Shown in pieces: positions 24,570 to 42,990 of a stretch of 44,897 bases of DNA (position 1 is its first letter; each line of letters starts with the position of its first letter). The position numbers and the translations under genes are program-made. The notes beneath the pieces are model-generated. The model did no database searches. It saw only the letters and a program-made list of their open reading frames with translations, and was not told the DNA's origin. The stretch spans positions 1-44,897 of the forward strand of contig JAEOSO010000001.1 of the NCBI GenBank assembly GCA_016840315.1, in the 5' to 3' direction. This DNA is from Candidatus Borrarchaeota archaeon (GTDB lineage: Archaea > Asgardarchaeota > Sifarchaeia > Borrarchaeales > Borrarchaeaceae).

Positions 24570-24630
24570 GTCAACTACCCCACCCTAAAGGAAAGGGGCT
24601 TCCAGAGGCGGGAGTCGTGAAGTCATTCTG
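24570..24630 (+). mobile_element. Solo remnant resembling the left-end hairpin region of the IscB element
   Basis: GTCAACTACCCCACCCTAAAGGAAAGGGGCTTCCAGAGG aligns with 28251-28290 GTCAATTACCCCTCCCTGTCGGAAGGGGCTTGAAAGAG. GC-rich patch directly after the pan stop. Confidence 0.35.
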
Positions 24631-24705: not shown

Positions 24706-25905
24706 CTATTTTTTAGGGCTAATCACACCTTTTTTATGAAGTGATTCAATTTCCTTTTTTGAATAATCAAGAGATCTTAGAATTTCATCAGTATGCTCGC
24801 CATATCCAGGCGCTCTCGCTCTGATACTACCGGGGGTTTCTGAAAACTTGAATGGCATACCTATACACTTGATAATGCCCACACGTTCATCTTCAAAATC
24901 TACAATCATCTCACGTGCTTGAACTTGTGGATCATTCATTATTTCATCTAATTCATTGACTGGTGAAATGCAAATATCGGTCTGTTTTGAGATTTCAAGC
25001 CATTCATCTCTGGTTTTAGTCGATATAGCGTTCTTTAGGCAATCAATAATTTCTTTTTTCTTCTTACCTGTTGATTCTTGTACATCAATTAAATCCTCTC
25101 TATCAATAGCAGTGCAGAGGTTCCTCCAAAACTTTAACTCCAATGCGCTAATAGCAATGAATTTATTATCCCTTGTTTTGTAGATCCCATAGCCCGGGCG
25201 CCCTCCAGTCAATAAGTCATCGCCTCTCATGGGAATCTCTTTTGACGCCCAATATCGTGGAAATGTAAACGCTAGCCATGTTAGCGCTCCATCTAACATT
25301 GCAACATCAATGTATTGTCCTTTACCTGTTTTATTACGGGCAATTATTGCCATCAAAATAGCGATGGCTGCATTTAGACCGCCAGCGCCAATATCTGCCA
25401 CTTGGACTCCCATTAACTTTGGTTGATCAGGCTCTCCCGTTAAACTGCCAACCCCTGCCACCCCCAGATAATTCACATCGTGACCAGGCAGATCTTTATA
25501 AGGCCCATTCTGCCCATATCCCGATAATGAACAATAAATAATCTGTGGATTAATTCTTCTGAGTGTTTCGTAATCAATCTGAAGTTTTTTCATAACACCG
25601 GGTCTGAAACTCTCAAAAATCACATCTGACTTCTCGGCTAATTTATAGAAGATCTTCTGTCCTTGAGGATCTTTCAAGTTCAGGATAATTGATTTCTTAT
25701 TTCGGTTCAAATGAAGGAATGTCGCACTCTCTTTATATGCGCCCTTAGTGTAAAAAGGTGGCCATCGGCGTAAATAATCTCCTTGAATCGGATCCTCAAC
25801 TTTTATTACTTCCGCACCAAAGTCTGCCAGTAACATGGTGGCAAACGGTCCAGGTAGAAGCCGTGATAAATCAAGAATCCTGATTCCTTCTAAAGGTAAT
25901 GTCAT
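24706..25905 (-). CDS. Family III CoA-transferase (CaiB/BaiF / racemase-like)
   Basis: LEGIRILDLSRLLPGPFATMLLADFGAEVIKVE N-terminal signature, about 400 aa. Confidence 0.8.
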   Translation of the reverse strand: MTLPLEGIRILDLSRLLPGPFATMLLADFGAEVIKVEDPIQGDYLRRWPPFYTKGAYKESATFLHLNRNKKSIILNLKDPQGQKIFYKLAEKSDVIFESFRPGVMKKLQIDYETLRRINPQIIYCSLSGYGQNGPYKDLPGHDVNYLGVAGVGSLTGEPDQPKLMGVQVADIGAGGLNAAIAILMAIIARNKTGKGQYIDVAMLDGALTWLAFTFPRYWASKEIPMRGDDLLTGGRPGYGIYKTRDNKFIAISALELKFWRNLCTAIDREDLIDVQESTGKKKKEIIDCLKNAISTKTRDEWLEISKQTDICISPVNELDEIMNDPQVQAREMIVDFEDERVGIIKCIGMPFKFSETPGSIRARAPGYGEHTDEILRSLDYSKKEIESLHKKGVISPKK

Positions 25906-25931
25906 AAAAATTGCATTAGATGCAGTTTGTT

Positions 25932-26792
25932 CTAATAAGCCTTCAGATAGGCTGAAATCCTTCCATGTACGATTTTCGGAGCATAAGTCTTTACGAGCCT
26001 AATTTTTTTGTCCTTTATTTCGAAGCCAAGCGACTCGCTTGTTGTCTTTATCCTTTTCATGGGTAGATGAGGGAAATCATGGCGAGATAAAGTCTCATGA
26101 TAATGTATCCATCCCCCTTTTGGTTTTAATGCGTTAATACCTTTATGCAAGTATTTAAATGTATTAAACAAATAGCCAAGAATCACATGATCAGCACATT
26201 TCTCTGGTGCTACTTTAATGCAGTCACCCAGCAGGGGCGTTATTCGATCCTCAAGTTTGTTCAGACGGATATTTTCTCGTAAATAAGAATAAGCAAGTTC
26301 GTTAAGTTCTATCGCGACAATTTTTTTTGGTTCACTATTCTTACCAATGGGAATTGACCATTGTCCAACACACGCAAAAAAATCCACGACTACGTCATTC
26401 TTTTGGATGAACAAAGGTAATCGTTGGCGCTCTTCAGTGTTTCCAGGCGAAAACATTATTTTCAGTGGATCAAGCTTAAAAACACAGCCCGCCTCTTTAT
26501 GTATTGTTTCAGCATGCGGGTCTCCATATACAATTTCATACTGAGGAACCCGAAATTCGCCGATTATTTTCCCTATCTGCATTGCTGCTGTTTTTACAGG
26601 TCTGTGATCCACATCTAATAATAATTTACCGATAATTTCCTTCCAGGGAAGCAGTTTAGGATGAAGTTGAAAAAGAAGTACATGTCCTAAAATAAACCAT
26701 TTTATGGGGAGATATTGAAGGAGTTCTTCAGGAATTGTGCCTCTACACTTTTGATGAAGCGATTTAGCATCTACCATGTGATCTTTTCGCAC
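25932..26792 (-). CDS. Trm5/Tyw2 (Met-10+) family tRNA methyltransferase
   Basis: SAM-MTase core VVDFFACVGQWSIPIG and length typical of archaeal Trm5/Taw enzymes. Confidence 0.65.
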   Translation of the reverse strand: MRKDHMVDAKSLHQKCRGTIPEELLQYLPIKWFILGHVLLFQLHPKLLPWKEIIGKLLLDVDHRPVKTAAMQIGKIIGEFRVPQYEIVYGDPHAETIHKEAGCVFKLDPLKIMFSPGNTEERQRLPLFIQKNDVVVDFFACVGQWSIPIGKNSEPKKIVAIELNELAYSYLRENIRLNKLEDRITPLLGDCIKVAPEKCADHVILGYLFNTFKYLHKGINALKPKGGWIHYHETLSRHDFPHLPMKRIKTTSESLGFEIKDKKIRLVKTYAPKIVHGRISAYLKAY

Positions 26793-26801
26793 CTCATGTT
26801 A

Positions 26802-27179
26802 TCATAATGATTGAGTTTTTAAAGCAAGTATTGCTTTTGCTAAATCACCGCCAGCATCTTCAAGCGCTGCACGTGCTGTTTCGACGTCAACTCCTGCTTG
26901 CTGCGCAACTAAATGAACATCTTCCTCTGGAATCTCCACTACTGCTCCTTCTGCACTACCTACTTCACCGGAAAGTGGTCTTTCTTCAGTATCCTGTCCC
27001 ACTACTTGCCAAAGCTTTTGCCCCGCTTGTGTCATAACAGTGACTTGAGGCTCTTTTATTACTAGCTCTTTCTCTAAAGTCCGAATAATAACTTCTTGGA
27101 CATCTGATATTTCCTTAAGACCCATTTGCGCCATCATTCGTCGAAGTTGTCTTGGACTCATCTTCTTCTTCTTCACCAT
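26802..27179 (-). CDS. nac: Nascent polypeptide-associated complex protein
   Basis: NAC domain (MSPRQLRRMMAQMGLK..VIIRT) plus C-terminal UBA (VETARAALEDAGGDLAKAI). Confidence 0.85.
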   Translation of the reverse strand: MVKKKKMSPRQLRRMMAQMGLKEISDVQEVIIRTLEKELVIKEPQVTVMTQAGQKLWQVVGQDTEERPLSGEVGSAEGAVVEIPEEDVHLVAQQAGVDVETARAALEDAGGDLAKAILALKTQSL

Positions 27180-27343
27180 AAAATCACCACGAGAGAATCA
27201 ATTCTCCACCATCAAAGATGGATTTATTTGTAATTTGATTTTAATCTTTCGCGTCTTTCAAGAAAGATTTTGTAGAAATGATTTCATATATTAGAGAAGG
27301 AATAAGGCTAGTAATTGGTTAGAACAACTCAAGGCAGAGCACA

Positions 27344-27832
27344 TTATGGAGTTTTTTCGTCTATGCCTCGCCTTACCTTTACTGCTACCCCTCTCTGAAA
27401 GGCGAGCATTTCTTCTCCAGACAATACACTTTTTCCAACAGCAAGAAGGTTATCTAAACTATCTACTACAATCACTTCAGACTTAGGACGTATATCTGAA
27501 CTTGCCTTAAACACATGCTTTGCAAATACACTTCTGCCTTTTCTAACAAACGGAATGGACTCATCACTTACTTGGACCTTAAAACGGATTTCTCCTCGCG
27601 TTTTTTCTAAAATATCTTGTGCACCAATTAAGGTCAATGCAAAAAGTCCATCTTTCGGACGTAATGTTGCAAGCAGTTTATCATTTAAATAAACATAGCG
27701 AATCCGTTTTGTACTTGGTGAACATACTATATTTACTTCTGATGGAAACAAAATGTCTCCGATTTTGTCCCCAAATTGATAGTTTGCTATACCTCGAATT
27801 TTTCGAAGCATTTCCCACGATTCTAGATTCAT
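27344..27832 (-). CDS. PUA-domain RNA-binding protein
   Basis: N-terminal IRGIANYQFG motif and C-terminal PUA-like segment (VVVDSLDNLLAVGKSVLSGEEM). Confidence 0.6.
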   Translation of the reverse strand: MNLESWEMLRKIRGIANYQFGDKIGDILFPSEVNIVCSPSTKRIRYVYLNDKLLATLRPKDGLFALTLIGAQDILEKTRGEIRFKVQVSDESIPFVRKGRSVFAKHVFKASSDIRPKSEVIVVDSLDNLLAVGKSVLSGEEMLAFQRGVAVKVRRGIDEKTP

Positions 27833-27855
27833 GTAAACACCTCAAGGAAATTCAC

Positions 27856-28191
27856 GGCTTCAACTGTGGGAGGAATTGAGGAACGTTTCCACTTTCACAT
27901 AGGTCTCTCCACTTTTAAATATTTAAAAGACGATGGTAATAATATAATGAAAGTCGTGGTCACCGCGAAAGTCAAACTGACTGATTTTTCCCCATTACTT
28001 GACAAGGTAATGAGGGTCAATGCTCAAGCAGTCCAGTTTTACATTGATACGGCTTGGCAACACCACATTAAACACAAGACTCCACTCCATGCAAATTTAT
28101 ACAACGAACTCCGTGAACGCTCTGATCTCCATTTTCAATTGTGATCTCAACCGTAATTAAAAGCCCACTCCTTTAGGTGTGGGTAGTTTAC
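27856..28191 (+). mobile_element. Internally deleted TnpB element (N-terminal tnpB stub fused to its right end)
   Basis: The tnpB stub is followed within 50 nt by hairpin CCCAC-tcctttaggt-GTGGG and GTAGTTTAC (28183-28191). The right end closely resembles that of the 15369-16785 element. The left boundary is approximate. Confidence 0.45.
27947..28144 (+). pseudogene. tnpB: TnpB N-terminal fragment (65 codons)
   Basis: MKVVVTAKVKLTDFSPLLDKVMRVNAQAVQFYIDTAWQ..LHANLYNELRERSDL is a typical IS1341/TnpB N-terminus. It is truncated before any RuvC motif. Confidence 0.6.
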
Positions 28192-28250
28192 ATTCTTAAC
28201 CTACAGCGAATCAGATGTTAGGGCACTTTTCTTCAATGAATAAGTTCAAC

Positions 28251-28561
28251 GTCAATTACCCCTCCCTGTCGGAAGGGGCTTGAAAGAGTCCCTGTAGAGG
28301 GGTAGGAGATTAGCCTGAGTGATGTCTCCTCCAGGGTGGAGGCAGATGAACTACGTTCGGGGCTGAGTGTCTGAAAATCACCCCGGAATGCTCCTCAAGT
28401 TCCGGGCTCTGAAAGACATGGTGGACGACCCAGGTCGCTATCCTGAGACCTGCACCATCATCATGTCCTGTGCCTGCCCCAACATTGGCGATGAGGACCT
28501 ACCCGCTTCGGCGGAGCTGACCTTTACAGGTCGTTAAAGATAGTTAGTTTGGGAGTTGTTA
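28251..28561 (+). ncRNA. Predicted IscB omega RNA scaffold (upstream of and abutting iscB); limits approximate
   Basis: About 310 nt, non-coding and GC-rich. Many local stems: AGGAGA/TCTCCT, CCGGAA-11nt-TTCCGG, CCGC-TTCG-GCGG, GACCT-TTAC-AGGTC. Its position matches known IscB systems. Confidence 0.55.
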
Positions 28562-29770
28562 ATGTTACTGATGAAAGCCTACGTTCAAACTGCACGGGGA
28601 AAACCCTTAGACCCTACCACTCCGGCCAGAGCTAGACTCTTGATAGCAGGAGGCCGAGCAAAAGTGGTAGCGCGAACGCCGTTCACCATTCGTATGCTAA
28701 ACCGAGACATGGGCTATACTACCGAAGTAACGCTGGGAATTGATAGCGGCTATTCAAAGGTGGGGTTTTCAGCCGTTACCCAGAAAGAGGAACTGCTGGC
28801 GGGCGAACTGGCGTTACGAAGCGACATGTCTAAGAAATTGGAGCAGAAGAGAAACTATCGAAGAAACCGGCGCAGCCGCAATACCCGATATCGGGTGCCG
28901 CGGTTTGATAACCGGAAACGGGAAGAGGGTTGGTTGGCCCCATCTCTTCGCCATAAGAAGCAAGCTCATATCACACTGATTGAAATGATTAAGACCCTGG
29001 TACCCGTCATCCATACCGAACTGGAGGTAGCTACCTTTGATACCCAGTTGCTACAAAACCCGGAAATCTCGGGGGTCGAATATCAACAGGGGACGTTGCA
29101 AGGTTACCATATACGAGAGTACCTGCTGGAAAAATGGGGACGGAAGTGCGCCTATTGCGGAAAAACTGGAGTGCCACTTCAGGTGGAACATATCATCCCC
29201 AAGTCACGGGGTGGCAGTGATCGGGTCTCGAACCTCACCCTGAGTTGTAGCTGCTGCAATCAGCAAAAAGGTGATCGCACCGCCGCCGAGTTCGCCCACC
29301 CTGAAATCCAACGACAGGCGAAGACATCAATGAAAAGCGCGACTTTCATGAATCTGGTCCGATGGCAACTGGTTAACGACTTGGAGTGCAATCACACGTA
29401 CGGCTACCTCACCAAGAAACGACGGATTGAGGCGGGGTTAGTAAAATCACACCTCAATGACGCCTTTATTATCGCCGGAGGCCACCAGCAAATCAGGTGT
29501 AGCCCCTTCATGTTGATCCAACCCCGGCGCAACAATAGAAGTATCCAATTGAATAGAAAAGGGTATGGACGCAGCATCCGGACACAACGGTATGTCTTAC
29601 AGCCTCATGACCTCGTCTCTTATGAGGGACTGCGGTGTCAGGTCAAGGGAATGTTCAACCGGGGGCGTTGGGTGCGATTGAAAACCCCAACCGGCGCTAC
29701 CGTTAATACCCACGTCAAAAAAGTGAAATTAGTGAGGTATGGCAGCGGCTTGCAGTTCAGCCGCCCATAA
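28562..29770 (+). CDS. iscB: IscB RNA-guided nuclease (RuvC split by HNH), apparently intact
   Basis: PLMP-like N-terminus (GKPLDP..ARLLIAGGRAKVV), RuvC-I GIDSGYSKVGFS, Arg-rich helix RNYRRNRRSRNTRYRVPRFDNR and RuvC-II LEVATFD. HNH is CAYCG..LQVEHIIPKSRGGSDRVSNLTLSCSCCNQQKG. RuvC-III is KSHLNDAFIIAG, followed by a beta-rich C-terminal tail. Alternative ATG at 28571. Confidence 0.85.
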   Translation: MLLMKAYVQTARGKPLDPTTPARARLLIAGGRAKVVARTPFTIRMLNRDMGYTTEVTLGIDSGYSKVGFSAVTQKEELLAGELALRSDMSKKLEQKRNYRRNRRSRNTRYRVPRFDNRKREEGWLAPSLRHKKQAHITLIEMIKTLVPVIHTELEVATFDTQLLQNPEISGVEYQQGTLQGYHIREYLLEKWGRKCAYCGKTGVPLQVEHIIPKSRGGSDRVSNLTLSCSCCNQQKGDRTAAEFAHPEIQRQAKTSMKSATFMNLVRWQLVNDLECNHTYGYLTKKRRIEAGLVKSHLNDAFIIAGGHQQIRCSPFMLIQPRRNNRSIQLNRKGYGRSIRTQRYVLQPHDLVSYEGLRCQVKGMFNRGRWVRLKTPTGATVNTHVKKVKLVRYGSGLQFSRP

Positions 29771-29999
29771 TAACAAACTAACTCACTCATGGTAATCCCA
29801 GGCCTCCTGTACTCTCAGACTTAGTTAGTTATGGAGACCCTCTTTTCGGAGGTGTGAGAGAGAGGAAGAAACGCGATTCTCTTACCAAAATGCGATCAGA
29901 GAGTCATCTCCTGCCTCTCTGAAGGGGTTTTCTCGCTGATATCAGATAAAGTTTTAAAAGAAAACCTATTGACAAATTGCATAAAACTAAATATCATCA

Positions 30000-32900
30000 A
30001 TGAGGGAAATCATAATGACTTATGATACCATGAAGGAATATAGAACATCCAGCAAAGTTACAGGTCCGCTTCTTTTTGTTGAAGGTGTATCAGGTGTAGG
30101 ATATGCTGAAATTGTTGAGGTAGAAACACCATCAGGCGATAATCGACGCGGTCAAGTGCTTGAAGTAGCAGAAGGCCTTGCTGTAGTTCAGGTTTTTGAA
30201 GGAACTTCTGGTTTAGACACGTCAGTTACGTCTGTGAGATTTCTTGGTGAGACGCTCAAACTACCCGTCTCGGCTGATATTCTGGGACGTGTGTTTGATG
30301 GCAGTGGAGAACCAATAGATGGCGGTCCTAAAATTATTCCTGACGACCATTTCGACATTACAGGCGCACCAATTAATCCGGACGCACGTACCTACCCAAG
30401 AGAATTCATTCAAACTGGGATCTCAACGATAGATGGATTAAACACTCTCGTTCGTGGTCAGAAACTTCCACTATTCAGTGGTGCAGGGCTCCCGCACAAT
30501 TATATTGCGGCTCAAATTGCGCGTCAAGCTCGTGTGCTAGGAGAAGCGGAAGATTTTGCTATAGTGTTTGCCGCCATGGGAATCACATACGAAGAAGCAG
30601 CTTTCTTCCGTAAAGACTTTGAGGGAACTGGTGCATTAGAACGTGTTACGCTCTTTCTGAATCTAGCTGATGACCCTGCAGTTGAACGTATAATCACACC
30701 ACGTGTAGCACTAACTTGTGCAGAGTATCTCGCGTATGAACAAGATTATCAGGTATTGGTTATTCTTACAGATATGACTAACTATTGTCTCCACGGCAAG
30801 TCAAGGATATTTCTAGAAGATGGAACAATTACTACGATCGGTGAACTTGTTGAAGCAATTAAAGCGGGTAATCTCGATTTAAAAGATATTCGTGTTGCTA
30901 CGTTAGATATGAATTATAAATTGAACTATAGATCAGTAATTGATGTGCAAAAAATTCCATCGCCAAGAAAGCTTCTGGTGATAAAAACCCGTTCAGGTGG
31001 GGAAGTAATTGTCACTGGAGATCACAAAATACTCGTAGACATGATAGAAGGTCCGAAGATGATTCCTGCTGAGGAATTAGAAATAGGACAAGAAATCTAC
31101 TCCGTGAATCGCTTAGATGTAGATGCCAATACTGAAGATCTACCTTCATTGCTTGAAGTTTTGCAAGATTCTCCAGAACGTTTTTTCGTAACCTTTTCTG
31201 ATAAAGACATAAGTGAGAGCATTAATAACGCGTTAAAAAATAAACATGGTAGTCTTGGTAAAGCATGTGAATTACTCGATTTAAAATACAACCGTATTAC
31301 TGATAATTATGAAAAAAGAAGATACACGGTTGACGAACTGGGTAGAATAGGCAAAGCGCTTTCCTGGGAGAAATACCAGTGGAAATTGCTTTCATCTAAG
31401 ATTGATAAGATTGGTGCAGGTAAGAAAAGAACTGATTTAGCAAAAGGTTTTGATCTTTATACTGATGATTTCTTCTACTTTCTCGGTTTCATAGCTTCAG
31501 ATGGAACTGTTGGGATTTATGAAAATAAACGAAAAGATGGTAGCCTAAAAGGTTATACATACAAAGTTGGATTTGCCAATAAAATCAAAGATGTCGTTGT
31601 AAATACCAAAAAACTGGTCCAAAAATACATTCCTTCATTTGATCCGTCTTTACAACAAAACCAAAACGGCGTTTGGATTTGTGATACCAGTAATTTATTC
31701 CTAATGCGGTTAATAGAGATTTTCGGTGTTAAAGGCAGAGTAAAGGATGAAGAATGCTATTACCCCATCTTTAAACTCCCCGAGAACCTTATTGCGAGTT
31801 TCTTGCAAGGATATTTTGATGGTGACGGAACCGTACCACGTAAAGAAAAAGCTGTAAAGTTCGCTGTAGGTAAATTACCAGATTCTTTAGCACCAGGTTA
31901 TCCTCCTGAGCAGAGTAAAGAGAGGGCTAAAAACATTCAGCTACTGCTAAAAAGGCTTGGAATAGCCTCAAAAATATTAAAACGTGATACAACGAGTATA
32001 AAACCCGGCGACGAAAAAGGAACAAGTATAATTTATGATGTAGTAGTTAGAGGTAAACGGGATGTTCTCAAATTCATCGAGAATATTAACTCCAGACATC
32101 CAGAAAAGAGTGAAAAACTCAAAAAATTAGCAAGAGAATTAGAATCGATTCCTGATGTAACAACAGACTTCGAAAAAGCACCGTTAATCTCTGGTTCGTT
32201 GATTAAAAAGACGCGTGAGCATTTAAATCTACCTCAAACTTTCTTTGGCACATCTAGTCGGATTAGTGAAATTGAAAGTGGTAAAAAACGGCTGGGGAAT
32301 TTTGATTTATTACAAATGGCAGATAAAGTTGTAGAAGTTTATTTCAGTAATCCTGGACATCATAATATCAACGAATTGCATGATATGGAGAGTTTTGGCA
32401 GTGGCGACTTCATTCTTGATAAAATCGTAGAAATTGAAGAAATAGAATCTGACTCAGATTTTGTCTATGATATAACCATGGCTGAGGTTATGATCGGAAA
32501 TGAATTGGGTTCTCGTAAATCAGTAGGGTTCCGCGACAAAACTCATCGATTCGTTACTGATAATGGGTTAGTTGTTTCTAACTGTGAAAGTTTACGAGAG
32601 ATCTCCGCTGCCCGCGAAGAAGTTCCAGCTAGAAGAGGTTACCCAGGGTACCTCTATACCGACCTCGCAAGTATTTACGAACGGGCAGGGAGAATTACAG
32701 GAAGAAAAGGAACAATAACACAGATGCCTATTCTTACAATGCCCAATGACGACATCACACATCCCATACCCGACTTAACAGGCTATATAACCGAAGGACA
32801 GATTTACGTTGATCGTGGTCTACATAGAAGAGGTATTTATCCTCCAATCGATGTTTTACCTTCACTATCACGCTTGATGAAGGAAGGTATTGGAAAAGGA

Positions 32901-33206
32901 CTAACACGTGAAGACCATAGAGAAGTTGCTGACCAATTGTATTATGGTTACTCTGAAGGAAGAGATCTGCGAGAACTAGTAGCAGTAGTAGGCGAAGAAG
33001 CGCTTACAGAGAGAGATAGAAGATACTTAGAGTTTGCCGAGCGTTTTGAGCGGGAATTCACAAGCCAACGGATGGATGAGGATCGTTCAATCGATGATAC
33101 ATTAGATATAGGGTGGGAACTTCTTGCAAAATTACCCGAAAAGGAACTCAAGAGGATCGATCCTGATACAATTAAAAAATGGCATCCTTCATATCGCGCG
33201 CGCTAA
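30000..33206 (+). CDS. atpB: A/V-type ATP synthase subunit B, containing an intein
   Basis: The exteins read ..[11 protein letters not shown] / [29 protein letters not shown].. The start could be a downstream ATG (30015 or 30030). Confidence 0.9.
30786..32582 (+). mobile_element. Full-length intein (599 aa) with a LAGLIDADG homing endonuclease
   Basis: Block [14 protein letters not shown], block [19 protein letters not shown] motifs [14 protein letters not shown] and [13 protein letters not shown]-terminal GLVVSN followed by the +1 Cys. Confidence 0.85.
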
Positions 33207-33266
33207 AAATAAGATATTCTTAAGCTACATCCTTTCCTTTATAGTAGGATCGTGGAGGAAAAGTAA

Positions 33267-33932
33267 ATGAGTGAACTTATGTCGGGCATCCGACCCACTA
33301 GAATGGAATTATTATCTTTAAAGGACAGACAGTCACTTGCCGTGAAAGGCCACGGACTTTTGAGTGAAAAAATGGATGCTCTCATACTAGAGTTTTTTGC
33401 AATTCTTGAAGATGTTAAGACGGCACGAGCATCACTCTCTGAAATGCTTGCAAGGGCATTTAAGTTTCTAATGGAAACGAAAATGGTTTTAGGGGCGATT
33501 AAACTTAAGGAAATTGCTACGGCGGCGCCAAGTCTCTTTAAATTAGAGGCCGAGACGCGCAATCTGATGGGTGTGAGGGTTCCTGTCTTACATCTTGAGA
33601 AAAAACTCGATGAATCCGAAAAAATACCCTTTTACGGATTTGTAGACACACCGACAGTGCTAGACGAATCGGTAACTCTTTTCCAGAAGATACTTGAAAA
33701 AATAACAAAATATGCCGAAGTTATCGCAACAATGGAACGGCTAGCCGACGAGATCATAAGTACTAAGCGACGGGTCAATGCACTTAATTATGTGATTATT
33801 CCTCGTCTCGAAACTACCATTAATTTCATAGAACAATATCTAGAGGAAAGAGAACGCGAATCATTTGTTAGAATGCGTCACATAAAACGATTATTAGAAA
33901 AAAAGGGAGTTAAAGAAAAAAGTAGCGTATAA
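33267..33932 (+). CDS. atpD: A/V-type ATP synthase subunit D
   Basis: IRPTRMELLSLKDRQSLAVKGHGLLSEKMDAL N-terminal signature and a coiled-coil protein of about 220 aa. Confidence 0.9.
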   Translation: MSELMSGIRPTRMELLSLKDRQSLAVKGHGLLSEKMDALILEFFAILEDVKTARASLSEMLARAFKFLMETKMVLGAIKLKEIATAAPSLFKLEAETRNLMGVRVPVLHLEKKLDESEKIPFYGFVDTPTVLDESVTLFQKILEKITKYAEVIATMERLADEIISTKRRVNALNYVIIPRLETTINFIEQYLEERERESFVRMRHIKRLLEKKGVKEKSSV

Positions 33933-34099
33933 ACTGATAGCATATTATCAATCATAAATGAACTTTCTTTTTGAAAGTCTCCGAAAATCAGATCATACGT
34001 CTAGTAATAAAAGGGGAACTTCATTTTTTAAACAAAACCAAAAAGAAACTTTACCGTTCCTTTCATAATAGCATCTATTTCTTAGCCAGATAGTGTCTA

Positions 34100-34310
34100 T
34101 CCATTCACGAGAACGTATGTGTAGTTCACGCTAGGACGGCTGAGCGGGATACCTGTCGCCATATAGGGGACAGGCTTTATGTGCTAAACTACCACCGTTC
34201 CCCAAATCATATATATGTTTCCTGCTTTACAATTGCCGCGCCTTGATTGTTCCCTAGGCGGATTGAGGCAACTCGTGAGGTAGGGCATGATGGCTACAGA
34301 TTGGTATCAT
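34100..34310. other. GC-rich non-coding island with IS200/IS605 right-end-like motifs on both strands (probable IS debris)
   Basis: Hairpin plus exact GTAGTTCAC at 34121-34129 (+). GGTGGTAGTTTAG on the minus strand at about 34177-34189. Stem CCTGTC-11nt-GACAGG. No ORF. Confidence 0.3.
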
Positions 34311-34526
34311 TAGGCATAACAGCAATAAAATTTACATTACCCCATTGAGAATACTTTAAATGATACGAACAATATACTAAATGGAATTGAACATACAAGC
34401 CTTTGAGGACTAGTTTAGATCCACACTAAGCCGTTGAATCTATCCAAGACGCAAAAAGGTACAATTAATTCAAAAACACAAGGGTTTAGGAGACAGACAG
34501 GAGTGTCATCTTTGGAAGACAAAGCC

Positions 34527-34877
34527 ATGAAGGTCATTCTAGATACTGGAGTGCAAGGCATATTACAGTCTGATCTTTGGAAAAAGCTGGAAACTACAAG
34601 CCGAGAGGGCTCAAGACTAGCTGTACGCTTGGAAAAGACTGGGTTGGTTAAGCGGGTAAAAGAATTAGTTGATGGAAGATGGACCTTCCGACTTTATGCA
34701 ATCTCAGATGCCTTAAAAACTAAATCGGGAAATACTCTTGAAGGCTGTCCGTGTTTTAAATGTGCAGATCTGGCGAGATGCGGAAACCTTCAATCAATAT
34801 CCCCTGTTTTCTGTGCTGGTTTGGATCACTGGCTTCAAATACTCTCTAAGACTGGTCGCAGGAATAATTCTTCATAA
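34527..34877 (+). CDS. TFE-beta-like (TFIIE-beta/RPC39-like) protein: winged helix plus a 4-Cys Fe-S type motif
   Basis: wH segment ILQSDLWKKLETTSREGSRLAVRLEKTGLVKRV, then C-P-C-x2-C-x5-C-x10-C (CPCFKCADLARCGNLQSISPVFC). ATG 34527 preferred over TTG 34434. Confidence 0.5.
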   Translation: MKVILDTGVQGILQSDLWKKLETTSREGSRLAVRLEKTGLVKRVKELVDGRWTFRLYAISDALKTKSGNTLEGCPCFKCADLARCGNLQSISPVFCAGLDHWLQILSKTGRRNNSS

Positions 34878-34956
34878 GATATTCGATAAAATGGGAAGGG
34901 GATCTAAATCACTGTATTTTTTCATATTGAATCATGAATATTGGAGATTTTTGTCA

Positions 34957-35577
34957 ATGGGTAAACGGAGGATGTGGTTGAACGAGAAGAAAAAGGATCA
35001 TTACTATAAAAAGGCAAAAAAAGAGAATCTCCGTTCAAGAGCGGCGTTTAAGCTTATTCAGTTAAATGAAAAATTCAAATTCAAATTAATAAAAAAAGGA
35101 GACAGTGTTTTAGATTTAGGCTGTGCGCCAGGCGGCTGGCTAAAAGCGATTAAAAACCTTGTAGGTGAAAAAGGTATAGTTGTAGGAGTAGATTTACAAC
35201 CTATAACTCCAATCCCCCAAGTAAAGTTTGTTTTAGGCGATATCACGGACGAAAATACCATAGCTGAAATTAAAGAATATAATTCTAGTTTTGATGTAAT
35301 TACCTCTGATTGCAGCCCCAATGTAAGCGGAAACTGGGAAGTGGATCATGCCCGACAAATTTATCTGGCTGAGATGTCGCTAGAAATTTGTCAACAACTT
35401 CTTTGTGAGGGAGGTAATTTCGTAGTTAAAGTTTTTCAAGGAGAACTCTTTGAAGATTTCATTGAAAAAATGAAACAAATGTTTGAGAAGGTAATTATAA
35501 GCAAACCCGATGCTTCGAGAAAAAGGAGTTCAGAAATATACGTAGTTGGTCGCCAGTATGACCCCAAATATTCTTGA
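34957..35577 (+). CDS. rlmE: 23S rRNA 2'-O-methyltransferase RlmE/FtsJ
   Basis: RSRAAFKLIQLNEKF and VLDLGCAPGGW, plus the catalytic K-D-K-E context. Start moved to ATG 34957. Confidence 0.85.
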   Translation: MGKRRMWLNEKKKDHYYKKAKKENLRSRAAFKLIQLNEKFKFKLIKKGDSVLDLGCAPGGWLKAIKNLVGEKGIVVGVDLQPITPIPQVKFVLGDITDENTIAEIKEYNSSFDVITSDCSPNVSGNWEVDHARQIYLAEMSLEICQQLLCEGGNFVVKVFQGELFEDFIEKMKQMFEKVIISKPDASRKRSSEIYVVGRQYDPKYS

Positions 35578-36466
35578 AAATGTCAAGGCAAAAATTTACT
35601 CAGAATTTTATCAGCGAGCCTTAGACGATATAATAATTTATGAACGCGAATCTAGTGATTTAGTTGATCTTTCGCTGCTAGTTGGTTTATGTAGAAATTT
35701 TCTCCCTTGGGACCACGAGAGGATTCAGTCCAAAGCAGAACAAATTAATAATGCCTTAGGTCTTCATATCAAGTATGTTCGTTGTTGTAATCACAAGAAT
35801 CCGAGTTGTAATGCACGACAAATGTTAGAAGTTCAAGAAATCCCACTTTCTCACATTCCTAAGGTAATATGGGGCTTTCAATCGGTTATGTTGCACTTCT
35901 TTTTTAAGATCCCATCAGGTTCTAAATTCCCAATACGATGTGAACAACATGCCAACATTCTAGCCGAACATAATTTCAGATTAACTCGAATTAATCTCTC
36001 GCGCGGATTCTCAATTTTTCAAGAACCCCAAGTTGAAGTGGAATTACAATTTAAAGGAGATTGGGTAATTCACATCCCGTACCAGATCGGAGACTGGGGA
36101 AAACTCTTGGAATCAGCTAAAGCATTAGAGATGATGATTATTCAGCCTAGGCTTCAAACTACAGGTGATTTGTATATAATGACACGTCTCGTTTGGAATA
36201 AAGAAAAAATGCGTCCAAGGGACGCAGATGAAAGATTTACAGAATTAGTTATACAAAATGGATTTGTAGTCGGAAAAAAGATATTTCCGATGTTCTTTTT
36301 GGCTCATCCAATGTTTGAAACTCTAAATGATCTTGTGCAAAAACATCGAGAAGACATTAAAGAAATCACATTCAATTCAATCTTACTTAGACATACTATT
36401 GATCTTGCAAAGGATATTTCAAAGGCTAGAGAACTTAGTGAAGAGTTTGGTGCGTTAGCTCACTGA
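35558..36466 (+). CDS. Hypothetical protein (302 aa), no recognised domain
   Basis: Long ORF whose ATG overlaps the last 20 nt of rlmE. Host-like AT-rich composition. Confidence 0.5.
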   Translation: MTPNILENVKAKIYSEFYQRALDDIIIYERESSDLVDLSLLVGLCRNFLPWDHERIQSKAEQINNALGLHIKYVRCCNHKNPSCNARQMLEVQEIPLSHIPKVIWGFQSVMLHFFFKIPSGSKFPIRCEQHANILAEHNFRLTRINLSRGFSIFQEPQVEVELQFKGDWVIHIPYQIGDWGKLLESAKALEMMIIQPRLQTTGDLYIMTRLVWNKEKMRPRDADERFTELVIQNGFVVGKKIFPMFFLAHPMFETLNDLVQKHREDIKEITFNSILLRHTIDLAKDISKARELSEEFGALAH

Positions 36467-37671
36467 CGTAACTTCAGCAGTATATCCTTAAGATCGTCGA
36501 TGTTGGCAGTAGTACGAAGTGCTGTAGGCTTAAAATGCGTTCTCGTTGTTTTAAAATCTTTTTTTTCTAAAAGATTCATTACGTGCTCTATTTTTGGAAC
36601 TTGGATTGATAAATCGTCACATAACGAGTGAATATCATAGTATAAAGGAGGGCCGTCTGCTTCTTCAATAATCCGAATTAAAAGTCGCATTATACGTTTT
36701 TTTGTAGCGTCAAGTTGTCTTTTTTCTGCTTCAGCTTTCATTCTCTCGCAAAGTGATTTATCGAATAGTTTACCAACAAACAAAGGTCCACCAATGGATA
36801 AGGGAGACGTACAGTTAGGGCACAAATGGGTAAACAAGGTAGTAATTCCTTCAACAAGATCTCTATAACCACATGAAAAACAATGCAGAAGAAAACCAAG
36901 ACTCTCTAAAGAAGCATCTGCTTTTGTATCGCCATGATCAGCTTCAATATAAACACGAATATAATGATCTGTACTATGAACGAATCTCACTTTCGTGCCC
37001 ATACTAAACCGTGCAGCGATTCTTATAATACATCCTGCTAATAACCTAACTGCGATTTCATGGCAATATTTTGTCTTTAATGGATATCCTCCATACTTTC
37101 GAAAGCTTGCCTCTGGATAGACTCCACAAAGCGGAGCCATATCTGTTGCCGTAGCACACAATAAACTTTCTTTTTTCTTAAGGGCGCGTATAGCTGCATC
37201 GATGTATGGTGCCGGTGTTCCAAAAGGGTCGACATCAATGACGTCAAATCGATTTCCACTAGCGGTGTGCTTATCCAAAAAGAGATTCCCGTCTTCATTT
37301 GATACTTTGACTTTTTCCCGTACTTCATTTACTCTAATATTTTCCTTTGTCAACTCGTATGCAGGAGTACTCCTGTCATTTAGATATACTTCTTGAATTC
37401 CACGAACTTCTAGAGCAATTCGAATACCCCGGACTCCACAACCAGTTAATGGTTCACAAAACTGAATTAGGCGTTGTTTTTCTTCCTGAAATACTTGAAC
37501 TGCTAATATAGATAAATCTCTGTTCAATTCCATTTGAGGATTGTAAAATACTGGCGTTTTTACAAAATCTGTTTCCATATCTGGTGTATCTGGTATATAG
37601 AAAGAGACTCTTCCTTCAGTAACTCTGCGTAATGGAAACTTTATTTTATCTCCTTTAGTACTAGGCACCAT
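36460..37671 (-). CDS. trm1: tRNA (guanine26-N2)-dimethyltransferase
   Basis: FYNPQMELNRDLSI, EPLTGCGVRGIR, DVDPFGTPAPY and a C-terminal Cys cluster (CFSCG..CPNC). Confidence 0.9.
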   Translation of the reverse strand: MVPSTKGDKIKFPLRRVTEGRVSFYIPDTPDMETDFVKTPVFYNPQMELNRDLSILAVQVFQEEKQRLIQFCEPLTGCGVRGIRIALEVRGIQEVYLNDRSTPAYELTKENIRVNEVREKVKVSNEDGNLFLDKHTASGNRFDVIDVDPFGTPAPYIDAAIRALKKKESLLCATATDMAPLCGVYPEASFRKYGGYPLKTKYCHEIAVRLLAGCIIRIAARFSMGTKVRFVHSTDHYIRVYIEADHGDTKADASLESLGFLLHCFSCGYRDLVEGITTLFTHLCPNCTSPLSIGGPLFVGKLFDKSLCERMKAEAEKRQLDATKKRIMRLLIRIIEEADGPPLYYDIHSLCDDLSIQVPKIEHVMNLLEKKDFKTTRTHFKPTALRTTANIDDLKDILLKLRQ

Positions 37672-39296: not shown

Positions 39297-40151
39297 ATGA
39301 AGGTTAACGAAATAGTCCAAGAGATCCAAACTACTTATGATATCGTTGGAAGAGAGCATGAACTCAAGAAAGTGGTAATAGCAAATCTTGCAGGACAACA
39401 TGCACTTATTGAAGGGTCCGTTGGTGTTGGAAAAACAATATTAGCAAAAGCAGTTGCATCACATTTTAACAAAGACTTCCTAAGGGTCGATGGTGATGAA
39501 CGCTTTACAGAAAGCAAACTAGCTGGTATATTCGATCCTCCTATGGTTCTTAAGGAAGGGTGGACCTGGAATTCTTTTGTCCCTGGTCCTTTGACTAAGG
39601 CAATGCAAACAGGTGCTATTCTGTTTATTAATGAGGCCAATCGCCTTCCAGAGGGCACACAAAACGTGCTGTTACCAGCTCTTGATGAACGGCAAATTAT
39701 TATCCCTAAACTCGGGATTGTTAAAGGAGAAAATGGTTTTCAGATTATTGCTACTCAAAACCCTGAAGAATTCATTGGAACAACTACTCTTTGTGAAGCG
39801 TTAAAAGATCGATTTGTGTGGGTAAAATTAGACTACCAAAGTGAAGAGGAAGAAAGAAGAATTGTTAAACTCCAGTCCCAATGCGAAGACGACCAAACAA
39901 TTAAGAAGGTAGTCGCTATTGTTCGTACAACACGGGATTATGCTGACCTTCGAAGAGGGTCCTCAGTAAGAGGCGCATTAGATCTCGCAAACATTATACG
40001 CTTCTATGACTCTCCCGCCACAACATATGAAGATTGGGTAAGCAGCGCTATTATGGCATTGGCAACTAAGATCGAACTTGAGGATGGTTTGGAAAAATCT
40101 ATAGAAGAAGTAATTCGTGAAATTGTAGGATATGTATTGGGGGATTTTTAG
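39297..40151 (+). CDS. MoxR-like AAA+ ATPase
   Basis: Walker A GSVGVGKT. Walker B region ILFINEANRL has Asn where MoxR proteins usually have Asp. Sensor ATQNP, DRF. Confidence 0.8.
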   Translation: MKVNEIVQEIQTTYDIVGREHELKKVVIANLAGQHALIEGSVGVGKTILAKAVASHFNKDFLRVDGDERFTESKLAGIFDPPMVLKEGWTWNSFVPGPLTKAMQTGAILFINEANRLPEGTQNVLLPALDERQIIIPKLGIVKGENGFQIIATQNPEEFIGTTTLCEALKDRFVWVKLDYQSEEEERRIVKLQSQCEDDQTIKKVVAIVRTTRDYADLRRGSSVRGALDLANIIRFYDSPATTYEDWVSSAIMALATKIELEDGLEKSIEEVIREIVGYVLGDF

Positions 40152-40294
40152 AAAAGGAGAGGACATTTCAACTAGATGTCCTTGATGATATACCACAAAA
40201 AGAGTTTTCTCCATCATGGGATTTCTCAAAAGAAAATATCCTAGAATCAGAAATTGCTTCTGGATCCAAAAAATCTCCAAAGTCTTATTCTCAG

Positions 40295-41263
40295 TTGGCA
40301 GAAGGTCTTCCATATAGCACGATTTCTCGTCTAGCTGAATCTGCCATTCAAAATGAGAATCTTTCTGCTCTTCTAGGACTCGCAATATGCAGTCAACGAG
40401 CTGTAGCAGATACTTTATCCTCTAAAGATGGCGTTGAATTATTTTCCAATAATATTCAGAAGAGTTCAGAAGCGATTCCAGAGTTATTCTTTCTCCTTAA
40501 GAAGTCATTCTCTCAAGGATATCTCCCTATTTTTCGGAGATTAACGCGAAATTTCATCATAAAGGCCGCAATGCGGATAAGTGGACGAGGATTAAGAGGA
40601 GATCTTAAGAGGGATGCAATATTTGAACCCGGAATGTCAGAGTTCTCCGTGGAAAAAACCATTGATCGCTTTTTGGAAAAATATTCTGAAGATAACTTGC
40701 TAACCTATAAGGACATTGTAGGTATAGAGAAGACTGAACGGAGAAAGACAGGTGTGCTGATGTTAGATACTTCTGGATCCATGTATGGAGAAAAAATGGT
40801 GAATGCCTGCCTTACTGTTGCGGTGCTCAGCCATCACATGCAGAAAGATGAATACGCGGTTATAATTTTCAACAATGATGCGAATGTCATTAAAAAAATT
40901 GATGCAAAAACTGAAATTTCCGAATTGATTGAAGCGATACTCGACATGGAACCCGCCGGATACACCAATATAGAAGCGGCCTTAAAGAAAGGTTTACTCG
41001 AATTGGGGAAAAAAAGAATGAATCCACGAAAATGGGGTATTCTCGTAACAGACGGAGAGTACAATAAGGGGGGAGATCCCAGACCATTTGCACGTAGTTT
41101 CCCAAAACTTCATGTCATCCAGTCGCCTTCCCAAAGCGCCGCCATAAAAAAGGGCGAACGTTTATGCAAAGATCTGGCTAGATATGGAAAAGGACGCTAT
41201 GCAAAGGTGCATTCTCACGCAGAGATTCCTAGAGTACTGATGAACTTGCTGAAAAAAGTGTAG
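40295..41263 (+). CDS. von Willebrand factor A (VWA) domain protein; the real start is probably upstream of the TTG at 40295
   Basis: MIDAS LMLDTSGSM and ILVTDGE. The same frame is open and protein-like back to 40121. Confidence 0.75.
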   Translation: MAEGLPYSTISRLAESAIQNENLSALLGLAICSQRAVADTLSSKDGVELFSNNIQKSSEAIPELFFLLKKSFSQGYLPIFRRLTRNFIIKAAMRISGRGLRGDLKRDAIFEPGMSEFSVEKTIDRFLEKYSEDNLLTYKDIVGIEKTERRKTGVLMLDTSGSMYGEKMVNACLTVAVLSHHMQKDEYAVIIFNNDANVIKKIDAKTEISELIEAILDMEPAGYTNIEAALKKGLLELGKKRMNPRKWGILVTDGEYNKGGDPRPFARSFPKLHVIQSPSQSAAIKKGERLCKDLARYGKGRYAKVHSHAEIPRVLMNLLKKV

Positions 41264-41510
41264 TTATTTTTTTTGCTAACAAATTTCTAATCAGATTTTC
41301 CAAACTCACATTTATTTTCATAGCTTTTTGTGATTTTGTAAAAAAACCATGAAATTTTGGCACCATTTCCGTATCACCTATCAAGGTTAAGAATCACGAT
41401 CACGGCTTTTCTGCCTATTAAAAGAAAGATTGGCACAGAATTTATCAATGCCCGTGAAGATTTGAAGACTACCAATAACTGCGCTAAAAAATTCCAAATT
41501 TACTGGGGTG

Positions 41511-41858
41511 ATGCACATGGAATGGGATATTCAAAGTGTCCTTAAAAGTGTCTTTGGAAAAATCGTTGAAGTTGGATTCAATGAAAACGGACCACATGCC
41601 GACATATATCTTAAAAATCTATTAACACCATTGAGAGAATACATCTATCAGTTTTTTGAAGTTGTAGATGCGAAATTACTACTACCTCGCGATCATCATT
41701 TGTTTTCGCAATTCATGAAAGCAATTGCTGATATCTTCGTTGGAGTCGAAGCTTTTCTGTCCGGAGTACTTGATCGGGAGAAATTACTCAGTCTATTACA
41801 AAAAACTGAGAAGATTCTGTTGAACTCCGATGCTGCGACACTTTTCCTAGGATCTTAG
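41511..41858 (+). CDS. Small predicted helical hypothetical protein (about 115 aa)
   Basis: ORF with GGGG upstream of GTG/ATG 41508/41511. No recognised motif. Confidence 0.45.
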   Translation: MHMEWDIQSVLKSVFGKIVEVGFNENGPHADIYLKNLLTPLREYIYQFFEVVDAKLLLPRDHHLFSQFMKAIADIFVGVEAFLSGVLDREKLLSLLQKTEKILLNSDAATLFLGS

Positions 41859-41900
41859 GCGATTTTTGCCAAATATATAAGATTTGGAGGAGAATAAATT

Positions 41901-42002
41901 ATGGAAATAAATAATCAAAGTCCAAAAATAGATGAAAATAAAAGAGATAACACTAAGCGTTTTCTCTTCTATAGAGAAGATGTTTTTCCAGTTCCCTTTT
42001 GA
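41901..42002 (+). CDS. 33-codon upstream ORF whose stop overlaps the GTPase start
   Basis: GGAGGAG about 7 nt upstream of ATG 41901. The TGA at 42000-42002 overlaps TTG 41999-42001. Confidence 0.3.
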   Translation: MEINNQSPKIDENKRDNTKRFLFYREDVFPVPF

Positions 42003-42631
42003 AGGGGGTGACAAAATTTCAAAAAAACTCTCTAAAAAACTCATTACGTCTCGTTGAAAGAGAAACCAGTGAAAAAAGCACTGTAGAAGAACGCGAGAGA
42101 CCAAAAAAGGAATATGTAGTCAAAATAATCGTTGCTGGAGACGGGGGCGTAGGGAAAACAAGTTTACTAAATAGATATATCTCAAATGAATTTGTAGAAG
42201 GCATGAAACTTACTGTCGGGACTGATTTCTTTACTCACGTCTGCGACTGTAAAGGGCGTACCTTAAAAATTCAAGTCTGGGATTTTGGTGGCGAACCAAG
42301 ATTCAGATTCATCCTCCCAGATTATTGCAAGGGTGCGTGCGGTGTTTTGCTGGCCTTTGACCTAAATGATTTTGCCACGTTGATAAACTTGAATGAATGG
42401 CTACAAATTATCAGGGAAAACGTAGCAGATTCCGTAACAATTCTGGTTGGAACGAAAGCAGACCACGCAGAGTTTTTGGACGAGGAAACTATTAAACAAT
42501 TTTGTATAATAAATGAAATCGACGAATTCATCCCAACAAGTTCGAAAACGGGTGAAAACGTAGATTTTGTATTTTACGAGTTAATAAGACGTATTATAAC
42601 AAAAAAAATAAGTTTTGGCGGGGTTAAGTAA
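41999..42631 (+). CDS. Ras/Rab-like small GTPase
   Basis: G1 GDGGVGKT, switch I Thr (LTVGTDF), G3 WDFGGEPRF, G4 TKAD, G5 SSK. Start uncertain (TTG 41999 or GTG 42008). Confidence 0.8.
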   Translation: MKGVTKFQKNSLKNSLRLVERETSEKSTVEERERPKKEYVVKIIVAGDGGVGKTSLLNRYISNEFVEGMKLTVGTDFFTHVCDCKGRTLKIQVWDFGGEPRFRFILPDYCKGACGVLLAFDLNDFATLINLNEWLQIIRENVADSVTILVGTKADHAEFLDEETIKQFCIINEIDEFIPTSSKTGENVDFVFYELIRRIITKKISFGGVK

Positions 42632-42990
42632 TGTTAAACAGTCTGGCAGAGAATGAAAGTAATAATCAAAATCCAAATTTGGAAATTTTATTCTTTACGT
42701 CTTCCATTAATCCTCATCCTAAGATAGAAAAATATCTTGTAGAGACGATTGAGAAAAGAAAATTACCGATAAAAGTTACTAAGATAGACGTATTAAGAGC
42801 CCCGGAAGCCGCGGAGAAACATAATATAATCGTATGCCCTACACTTATTTTCCGTGACTTTATGAAAGTGTACGGTAATTGTGAGCAAGAAGAACTAGAA
42901 GACCTTTTATCTACCTATGGTTCTCTGACGACTTCTGAATTTCAGCATCAATCAGTCATTACACCAATTGGTGAGAGTCATTATGTATAA
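42631..42990 (+). CDS. KaiB/thioredoxin-fold protein, paralog 1 (no CxxC)
   Basis: LEILFFTSSINPHP..IDVLRAPEAAEKHNIIVCPTLIF, with a cis-Pro loop of the Trx fold. The ATG overlaps the GTPase stop (TAATG). Confidence 0.65.
   Translation: MLNSLAENESNNQNPNLEILFFTSSINPHPKIEKYLVETIEKRKLPIKVTKIDVLRAPEAAEKHNIIVCPTLIFRDFMKVYGNCEQEELEDLLSTYGSLTTSEFQHQSVITPIGESHYV

Follow-up and report, generated by a model that had tools for sequence, protein, structure and literature searches.

The 44,897-nt stretch of DNA analysed here (the window; positions 1 to 44,897 of contig JAEOSO010000001.1, assembly GCA_016840315.1, Candidatus Borrarchaeota archaeon) carries on its forward strand an iscB gene, encoding a nuclease of the RNA-guided IscB type, which is preceded by about 310 nt of structured noncoding DNA and bounded on both sides by sequences of the kind found at transposon ends (Table 1). 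We estimate a probability of about 0.85 that positions 28251 to 29945 form a non-autonomous insertion sequence of the ISC type (IS200/IS605 superfamily), carried chromosomally by an Asgard archaeon that is close to Candidatus Borrarchaeum and combining an intact IscB with an omega RNA that is a variant of the HEARO family. The interval named in the original prediction, which had been made from the sequence letters, coincides exactly with the ends obtained by comparing independent insertions. iscB is the only gene of the element; in the canonical orientation of TnpA, the Y1 transposase, the interval is read from right to left.

Table 1. Features of the ISC element and its immediate flanks in the window
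Feature	Positions	Strand	Description
Whole non-autonomous ISC (IS200/IS605-family) element	28251..29945	+ (iscB sense strand)	1,695 bp; extent from copy comparison
Predicted guide segment AATGAATAAGTTCAAC	28235..28250	+	Encoded by host flank; sequence 5' of 28251 unrelated in every copy
Omega RNA scaffold	28251..28561	+	HEARO-homologous core (28251-28502) plus two clade-specific 3' hairpins
Subterminal imperfect hairpin CCCCTCCC-TGTC-GGAAGGGG	28259..28278	+	Omega-RNA end (right end, RE, in TnpA terms); 8 nt from element end
3' hairpin CCGC-TTCG-GCGG	28503..28514	+	Clade-specific, in omega RNA
3' hairpin GACCT-TTAC-AGGTC	28519..28532	+	Clade-specific, in omega RNA
iscB coding sequence	28562..29770	+	402 aa; PLMP-like motif, RuvC-I, Arg-rich bridge helix, RuvC-II, HNH, RuvC-III, beta-rich C-terminal region predicted to interact with the target-adjacent motif (TAM)
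iscB-distal end (left end, LE, in TnpA terms)	29771..29945	+	Conserved with L001, L084, L085 and L086
Distal hairpin CTCCTGCC-TCTC-TGAAGGGG	29908..29927	+	2 mismatches to family pattern; 18 nt, then element end
ATAAA, predicted TAM or TnpA target site (TTTAT on TnpA-oriented strand)	29946..29950	+	Host DNA outside the element

An intact IscB protein

The iscB open reading frame (ORF) extends from the ATG at 28562 to its stop codon, precisely as had been predicted; a TTG at 28556 and an ATG at 28571 are alternative starts, and none of the three is conserved among relatives. The product matched the NCBIfam equivalog NF040563 (guided_IscB) with 383.1 bits against a cutoff of 175 (E 9e-115, residues 7 to 304), together with the Pfam families PF14239 (RRXRR; 202 bits, 6e-60) and PF01844 (HNH; 1e-13). 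The domain layout that had been read from the letters was borne out by these profiles and by alignment to characterised IscB proteins, and every motif then quoted is present, with the qualification that the PLMP-like motif reads PLDP where the family consensus is PLMP. In the AlphaFold2 model (predicted local distance difference test score, pLDDT, of 76.7), residues 6 to 45 form a small beta domain, the Arg-rich bridge helix spans residues 89 to 107 (KKLEQKRNYRRNRRSRNTRY), and the C terminus is indeed rich in beta strands (351 to 400, pLDDT of approximately 78 to 84), the sequence alignment to OgeuIscB ending near residue 345. A Foldseek search with this model returned IscB-omega RNA-DNA complexes as the top matches (8csz_D; E 1.5e-24, TM score of 0.62), followed by IsrB and then by type II-D Cas9, while a sequence search of PDB gave TbaIscB as the best hit (2.5e-45), followed by several OgeuIscB entries and HfmIscB.

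The RuvC catalytic residues are D61 (GIDSGYS, nt 28742-28744), E155 (LEVATFD, nt 29024-29026), and H297 with D300 (HLNDAF), and those of the HNH domain, inserted between RuvC-II and RuvC-III, are H210 and N233, accompanied by four cysteines (CxxC...CxxC). All of these positions are invariant in an alignment of 40 homologous sequences, and in the alignment to OgeuIscB and TbaIscB the GID, LEV, EH...N...N, and H..D motifs fall on known RuvC and HNH catalytic positions. The nuclease appears to be catalytically intact, as first suggested, and, by analogy with characterised relatives, would be expected to cut double-stranded DNA in an RNA-guided and TAM-dependent manner.

With 402 aa and no REC-like insert, the protein stands at the small end of its family. 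Its HNH region gives weak, partial matches to Cas9d and Cas9 models, and CRISPR typing tools have been reported to mis-call such loci as type II-D (PMC12988326), so we considered a miniature type II (II-D-like) CRISPR-Cas9 effector in place of a transposon nuclease. The matches, however, are restricted to the HNH region and score far below the cutoffs (Cas9d, 65 bits against 375; Cas9, 46 against 100), the window contains no CRISPR array, cas1 and cas2 are absent among the neighbours, and the 402-aa protein has no REC (recognition) lobe. We regard the Cas9 interpretation as refuted, with a probability close to nil.

A divergent HEARO RNA and its predicted guide

The 311 nt between 28251 and 28561 have a GC content of about 53%, compared with 38% in the rest of the window, and contain a single ORF (28367-28537, 56 aa) with no Pfam match; the earlier description of this segment as a noncoding, GC-rich block containing a CCGC-UUCG-GCGG hairpin holds, and its proposed role as an omega RNA gained support from a covariance model. 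Positions 28251 to 28502 matched the complete Rfam model RF02033 (HEARO; model positions 1 to 211 of 211) with 69.4 bits and an E value of 2.3e-13. The HEARO family was later shown to be the omega RNA of IscB. At Rfam gathering thresholds nothing is matched anywhere in the window, and HEARO emerges at E-value thresholds only; the RNA is best described as a diverged HEARO relative that Rfam-based annotation misses.

HEARO was found upstream of every related archaeal iscB tested. In genomes of Borrarchaeum, Sifarchaeum, Heimdallarchaeota, and Methanosarcinales, the iscB genes of other lineages have it at the same position, with scores of 108 to 134 bits (121 to 134 bits if only Asgard genomes, among them those same Borrarchaeum genomes, are counted), compared with 67 to 73 bits in the clade of the window element (L001, L002, and a solo copy described below). 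The members of this subtype differ from the HEARO model in that the second hairpin is replaced, two internal loops are larger (27 nt versus 8, and 35 versus 27), and approximately 60 nt of additional 3' structure follow the end of the model. Within the latter, the CCGC/GCGG stem is kept in relatives while its loop varies (TTCG, GGTT, GTAA, GGAT). In an alignment of 12 sequences that included other archaeal HEAROs, compensatory changes on both sides were seen in 20 of the 40 consensus pairs; this alignment was MAFFT-based and comprised few independent lineages, making the covariation supportive but not rigorous. The omega RNA is 93 to 95% identical between copies despite a synonymous divergence (dS) of 0.25 to 0.47 in iscB, which argues for strong constraint on the RNA.

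In characterised systems, IscB guides lie 5' of the scaffold and outside the transposon end (Meers 2023). The corresponding host-encoded segment here was taken, on the model of OgeuIscB, to be 16 nt long; no second site in the window matches it with 2 mismatches or fewer, its own flank being the sole match.

In Candidatus Borrarchaeum weybense (contig L001, positions 401-715, minus strand), a solo omega RNA that is 95% identical to window positions 28251-28545 (HEARO, 68 bits) has its own flank-derived guide and no iscB ORF behind it, and lies approximately 2 kb from a complete element. A Hammerhead_HH9 match at 29795-29870 on the minus strand of the window (E 0.96) was rejected, as the CUGAUGA core is absent.

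Ends of the element and predicted target site

In DNA alignments, homology between copies begins exactly at GTCAAyTACCCC (28251), to the left of which there are six unrelated flanks, and stops at ...GATATCAG on the right, the last conserved letters of the element being ...CTCGCTGATATCAG, followed by ATAAA(R) and five different, unrelated flanks. The base composition changes abruptly over the same interval, from approximately 38% GC to approximately 50% across 28200-29950 (approximately 52% for the element itself versus 38% for the window).

Both ends contain a subterminal imperfect hairpin. The family form, CCCCTNCC-N4-GGAAGGGG, is separated from the element terminus by 8 nt at the omega RNA end and by 18 nt at the far end. 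In L085, L086, L090, and the distant L009 both copies of this hairpin are exact, and the pattern CCCCTNCCNNNNGGAAGGGG, with 0.02 matches expected by chance in the window, is found at both ends of all four. L009 is a Methanolliviera element whose IscB is only 52% identical to that of the window and whose 18-nt terminal spacer has diverged, ATAAA still following next. In IS608 the distances from hairpin foot to cleavage site are about 10 and 19 nt, and the spacing in the window element fits these values. The hairpin at 28259-28278 also constitutes the first stem-loop of the omega RNA, and the distal ends of L001, L084, L085, and L086 have a common indel of approximately 19 to 24 nt relative to the window. 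The terminal hairpin pattern was also detected, with 2 mismatches, just after the PAN ATPase gene (24578-24597, plus strand; CCCCACCCTAAAGGAAAGGG), with no other features of an element nearby; this may be a terminator-like structure or a chance match.

In five flanks, and likewise in L009, the element is followed by the pentanucleotide ATAAA, or ATAAA(R); direct repeats of flank sequence were not seen at the insertion sites. Kapitonov et al. (2016; PMC4810608) described ISC termini as 5'-GTCA with insertion at N|ATGA, and the related TnpB element IS605B-1_MS as inserted upstream of ATCA and ATAA; in Geobacillus, a TAM located 5' of the left end is common to TnpA and the nuclease, being TTCAT for GstIscB and TTTAT for GstTnpB2 (Meers 2023). 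ATAAA agrees with the N|ATAA and N|ATGA targets of ISC and related IS605B (TnpB) elements and, as the reverse complement of TTTAT, with the Geobacillus TAMs. From these comparisons we infer that ATAAA is the TAM and the TnpA target, with the boundary between 29945 and 29946.

Distribution of copies and selection

Close relatives of the protein (80 to 88% amino acid identity) are encoded in Ca. B. weybense (L001), Ca. B. yapensis (L002, identical to L081 and L083), and the ENA contigs L084 and L086, all in unrelated gene neighbourhoods. Counting B. weybense, B. yapensis, and three metagenome contigs, copies occupy at least five different sites, with five or six distinct flanks; their coding sequences are 85.4 to 90.7% identical at the nucleotide level, and the ratio of nonsynonymous to synonymous substitution rates (dN/dS) between copies at different sites is 0.19 to 0.30, with a dS of 0.25 to 0.47. 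The family is, on this evidence, under purifying selection. The omega RNA pattern was not matched in viral contigs, and there was no sign of a virus-borne copy.

The insertion of the window is itself fixed in several samples (L082/L087, L089, L091, and L093 to L097). Such fixation, the mismatched distal hairpin of the window copy set against a pattern that is perfect in L085, L086, and L009, the absence of TnpA from the window, and the B. yapensis copy (L002), which has already lost its distal end, could be explained by stranding: the family is or was mobile, but the window copy can no longer be excised, leaving an IscB-omega RNA pair with no donor joint to cut and drifting toward decay. On the other hand, the ORF is full length and retains all catalytic residues, the omega RNA of the window matches the others in its degree of conservation, comparison with other copies gives a dN/dS of 0.23 to 0.30 and not about 1, and the mutated hairpin is still able to pair through a G-U pair, with one extra mismatch. 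We therefore consider a stranded relic unlikely, although worth some weight, and favour the interpretation of the window copy as an intact ISC element.

Host, composition, and assembly

The window encodes a Trm1 protein that is 74 to 80% identical to Promethearchaeota archaeon and Ca. Borrarchaeum sp. proteins, the next matches being 47 to 48% identical and including Bathyarchaeia, as well as NAC, aTrm56, PAN, the B and D subunits of an A-type ATP synthase, and a Ras-family GTPase. Because of the Trm1 identity, the GTPase, and the archaeal markers, we assign the host, judging from its genes, to the Asgard archaea of the Borrarchaeum lineage, and the AT-rich archaeal chromosome (38% GC over the window) recognised at the outset is what was found.

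The GC content at third codon positions (GC3) is 58 to 65% in the iscB genes of the window family, 25 to 35% in the housekeeping genes of the window, and 39 to 46% in other IscB lineages of the same Borrarchaeum genomes. Compositionally, the family is foreign, which fits acquisition from a GC-richer donor. Of the recent horizontal arrival proposed earlier, the foreign origin stands for the family; for the window insertion it is not demonstrable, because the family has, by its copy divergence and sites, diversified and moved within the Borrarchaeum lineage since acquisition. The accompanying view that IscB is rare in archaea did not hold up as a reason for special interest: ISC elements were described in Methanosarcina in 2016 (Kapitonov et al.; PMC4810608), a 2026 survey found many putative archaeal type II-D calls to be OMEGA systems (for obligate mobile element-guided activity), including IscB-HEARO (PMC12988326), a protein with 84% identity is already listed by NCBI as "RNA-guided endonuclease IscB [Candidatus Borrarchaeum sp.]," and 11 of the 13 best full-length genome matches are archaeal. 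Sequences that are 65 to 66% identical were P0015 and, from a Deltaproteobacteria metagenome-assembled genome, P0016.

An abrupt GC step of this kind could also arise if a GC-rich bacterial fragment had been misjoined into an AT-rich archaeal contig, and mis-joins or recombination at the repeat do occur, as seen in L085. For the window, this explanation is refuted and its probability very slight: L097, an independent 41.3-kb JGI contig from another sample, is 99.97% identical over 26000-37206 and confirms both junctions, the left junction is also covered by L082/L087 and several Logan contigs, and the closest relatives are all in Borrarchaeum genomes. Six Logan contig entries break off at 28286, which is 35 nt inside the element; because L089 and L094 represent one and the same contig, they derive from five sequencing runs. 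One further contig stops at 28250. Such ends are expected at the edge of a multi-copy repeat.

L085 and L090, aligned to window positions 25571-29957, show 100% identity across the left flank and on into the element for ~630 nt (to about 28880), except for a patch at 28401-28600, whereas from about 28900 the identity is 84 to 93% (approximately 87%) and drops toward the distal end to approximately 70%; the right flanks differ. L085 was rejected as a simple orthologue on account of this drop and the different flank; the mosaic could be either an assembly chimera across paralogous copies or the product of recombination between copies.

Neighbouring sequences

On the left, positions 27947-28191 (plus strand) hold a 65-aa ORF (27947-28144; called as 92 aa from a GTG at 27866) that represents the N-terminal remnant of a TnpB, being 43% identical to residues 2 to 64 of P0248 (393 aa; Cas12f1-like TNB and OrfB_IS605 domains). 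It gave nothing against PDB, NCBIfam, or Pfam, and the link to TnpB came solely from an exhaustive search of representatives. Of the 32 nt ending at 28191 (AAAGCCCACTCCTTTAGGTGTGGGTAGTTTAC), 21 agree with the antisense of the ISC omega-RNA end, a level reached by none of 5,000 shuffles. The remnant and its matching end together suggest a decayed TnpB element of the same right-end type, which faces the ISC element across a 59-nt spacer. A Logan contig, L092 (SRR30965925), follows the window at 99.4% identity as far as 28191 (...GTAGTTTAC) and continues with 63 nt of unrelated AT-rich sequence (L092 1422-1484), its breakpoint coinciding exactly with the end of the TnpB remnant and not with that of the ISC element (28250). 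We rejected this 63-nt tail as an empty site, since 47 of 500 shuffles scored as well against the reconstructed empty site.

On the right, the element ends 54 nt upstream of the start codon of the ATP synthase B subunit gene (30000-33206, plus strand), beside a TATA-like box (TTTTAAAA). The 1,068-aa product of this gene contains a large intein with a LAGLIDADG homing-endonuclease domain (Intein_splicing, residues 270 to 828), inserted at ...DMTNY|C...N|. Further downstream (39297-43685, plus strand) lies a cluster typical of Asgard genomes, comprising a MoxR-type AAA ATPase, a VWA protein, the small GTPase of the Ras family (41999-42631; Pfam Ras, 119 bits), and a tandem series of three thioredoxin/KaiB-like ORFs; its thioredoxin region has approximately 70% DNA identity to sequence just upstream of the B. 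yapensis ISC copy. The last part of the window (44776-44897) consists of 4.1 head-to-tail copies of a 30-nt unit (93% matches), the series being cut off by the window end; the repeat has no spacers, hence it is not a CRISPR array, and is probably coding.

Discussion

The arrangement of gene, RNA, and ends is consistent with the life cycle worked out for characterised relatives, by analogy with which we envisage the following steps: (i) the omega RNA would be transcribed from upstream host DNA, so that its 5' 16 to 20 nt (AATGAATAAGTTCAAC) copy the left flank; (ii) IscB would bind the omega RNA scaffold; (iii) a Y1 TnpA encoded elsewhere in the genome would excise the element as single-stranded DNA by means of the subterminal hairpins, which match at the two ends; (iv) the flanks would rejoin as ...AATGAATAAGTTCAAC|ATAAAG... 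(written out, AATGAATAAGTTCAAC|ATAAAGTTTTAAAAG), a joint that would consist of exactly the guide match plus the TAM and could be cut by the IscB-omega RNA complex, with HNH acting on the target strand and RuvC on the nontarget strand; and (v) recombination with a copy still carrying the element would restore it. The ORF upstream of the element is co-oriented with iscB, which fits the orientation bias reported by Meers 2023.

Several observations weigh against our interpretation of the locus: (i) the HEARO score of the window RNA (69.4 bits) is below the Rfam gathering score of 83; (ii) the single-sequence fold energy of the omega RNA is no better than that of shuffles (z of -1.2), so that structural support comes from the covariance model and from covariation instead; (iii) since the distal hairpin carries 2 mismatches to the family pattern, the window copy may be a poor substrate for TnpA; (iv) no empty site was recovered, look-ups by the exact PUA protein and the 92-aa ORF having given only contigs that carry the element or end at 28250/28286, and for this reason the TAM and the right boundary are deduced from flank comparison; (v) none of the ORFs that were scanned or read in the window showed a match to a Y1 transposase (Y1_Tnp/TnpA), no search having been made elsewhere in the genome; and (vi) full-text literature searches found no experimentally characterised Asgard IscB. 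The fifth point had been anticipated in the statement that no TnpA is nearby, and it is the norm, because about 1.5% of iscB genes are near tnpA (Meers 2023).

Purifying selection and the fixation of the insertion across samples would also be compatible with domestication, in which the host has taken over the nuclease and its RNA for a fixed role, such as defence or regulation, instead of transposon maintenance, and the solo omega RNA of B. weybense (L001 401-715) could in that case supply other guides in trans. A domesticated system, however, should occupy the same syntenic position with a conserved guide across Borrarchaeum, which is the opposite of what is observed: no neighbourhood is conserved, the locus of close relatives changes from genome to genome, their ends being of the transposon type and their guides derived from the flank, the guide matches only its own flank, and the codon composition is still foreign. 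Domestication is, in our judgement, highly improbable, and the data are better described by an ISC insertion sequence.

The window element is an ordinary representative of an already known kind, not a new system, and our understanding of how IscB works is unchanged by it. Its value is modest and lies in the following points: (i) an intact IscB-omega RNA element of an Asgard archaeon is documented with exact ends, guide, and predicted TAM; (ii) the nuclease is compact, lacking the REC linker, and has ATAAA as its predicted TAM; (iii) its omega RNA variant scores under the curated Rfam threshold, so that similar elements are probably under-annotated; and (iv) the persistent foreign codon composition, combined with spread over multiple sites, makes the family a clean, if small, example of how a transposon lineage spreads within Borrarchaeum. 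Beyond this, we tentatively suggest, at somewhat less than even odds, that this GC-rich family of REC-less IscB proteins of about 400 aa, with its diverged ~310-nt omega RNA, is a currently active homing element, acquired fairly recently by Asgard archaea of the Borrarchaeum lineage from a GC-richer donor, and that solo omega RNAs may be able to retarget its nuclease in trans. Were this borne out, the family would mark the first demonstration of a functional OMEGA system in Asgard archaea and would offer a compact nuclease with an A/T-rich TAM, ATAAA.

Comparison with known systems

The locus resembles the ISC transposons (PMC4810608), including ISC2-1_ML and ISC2-2_ML of Methanosarcina lacustris, in its length of approximately 1.7 kb with iscB as sole gene, its 5'-GTCA... 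terminus, its subterminal imperfect hairpins at both ends, and its presence in multiple copies. As in those elements, the junctions give no sign of a target-site duplication, the insertion lies just upstream of a short A/T-rich sequence that is the predicted target here (N|ATAAA), and the type of end is common with a neighbouring TnpB element. Unlike the ISC transposons described, it resides in an Asgard archaeon and not in a bacterium or methanogen, and the GC3 of its family is strongly foreign.

With OgeuIscB (PDB entries 7XHT, 7UTN, and 8CSZ) and GstIscB (Meers 2023), the window protein has in common the domain order, the catalytic residues, and the fold, an omega RNA located upstream of the ORF with a 5' flank-derived guide, and a TAM, predicted in the window element, that lies 3' of the target on the iscB strand and corresponds to the target motif of TnpA. 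It differs from OgeuIscB in being about 95 aa shorter, the beta-hairpin REC linker before the FNNR-like motif (here RFDNR) being absent, and further differences are its low identity (about 22% in the structural alignment), its predicted TAM of ATAAA, and its omega RNA, which is about 310 nt long and includes insertions specific to the clade as well as two additional 3' hairpins. The sequence match to OgeuIscB (E of approximately 1e-28 to 1e-30) is weaker than that to TbaIscB (PDB 9K30), an IscB that has been described as founding the Cas9 lineage and with which the window protein has in common the motifs RFxNR and L(A/T)PS on either side of the REC insertion point; TbaIscB, however, is a 1,068-aa protein with approximately 490 residues ahead of the matching region. 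Finally, the RNA is like HEARO (RF02033) in its long-range closing helix GUCAA...UUGGC, its conserved CACC...AUGC...AGU...GCUCUG hairpin, and its position directly upstream of an HNH/RRXRR ORF.

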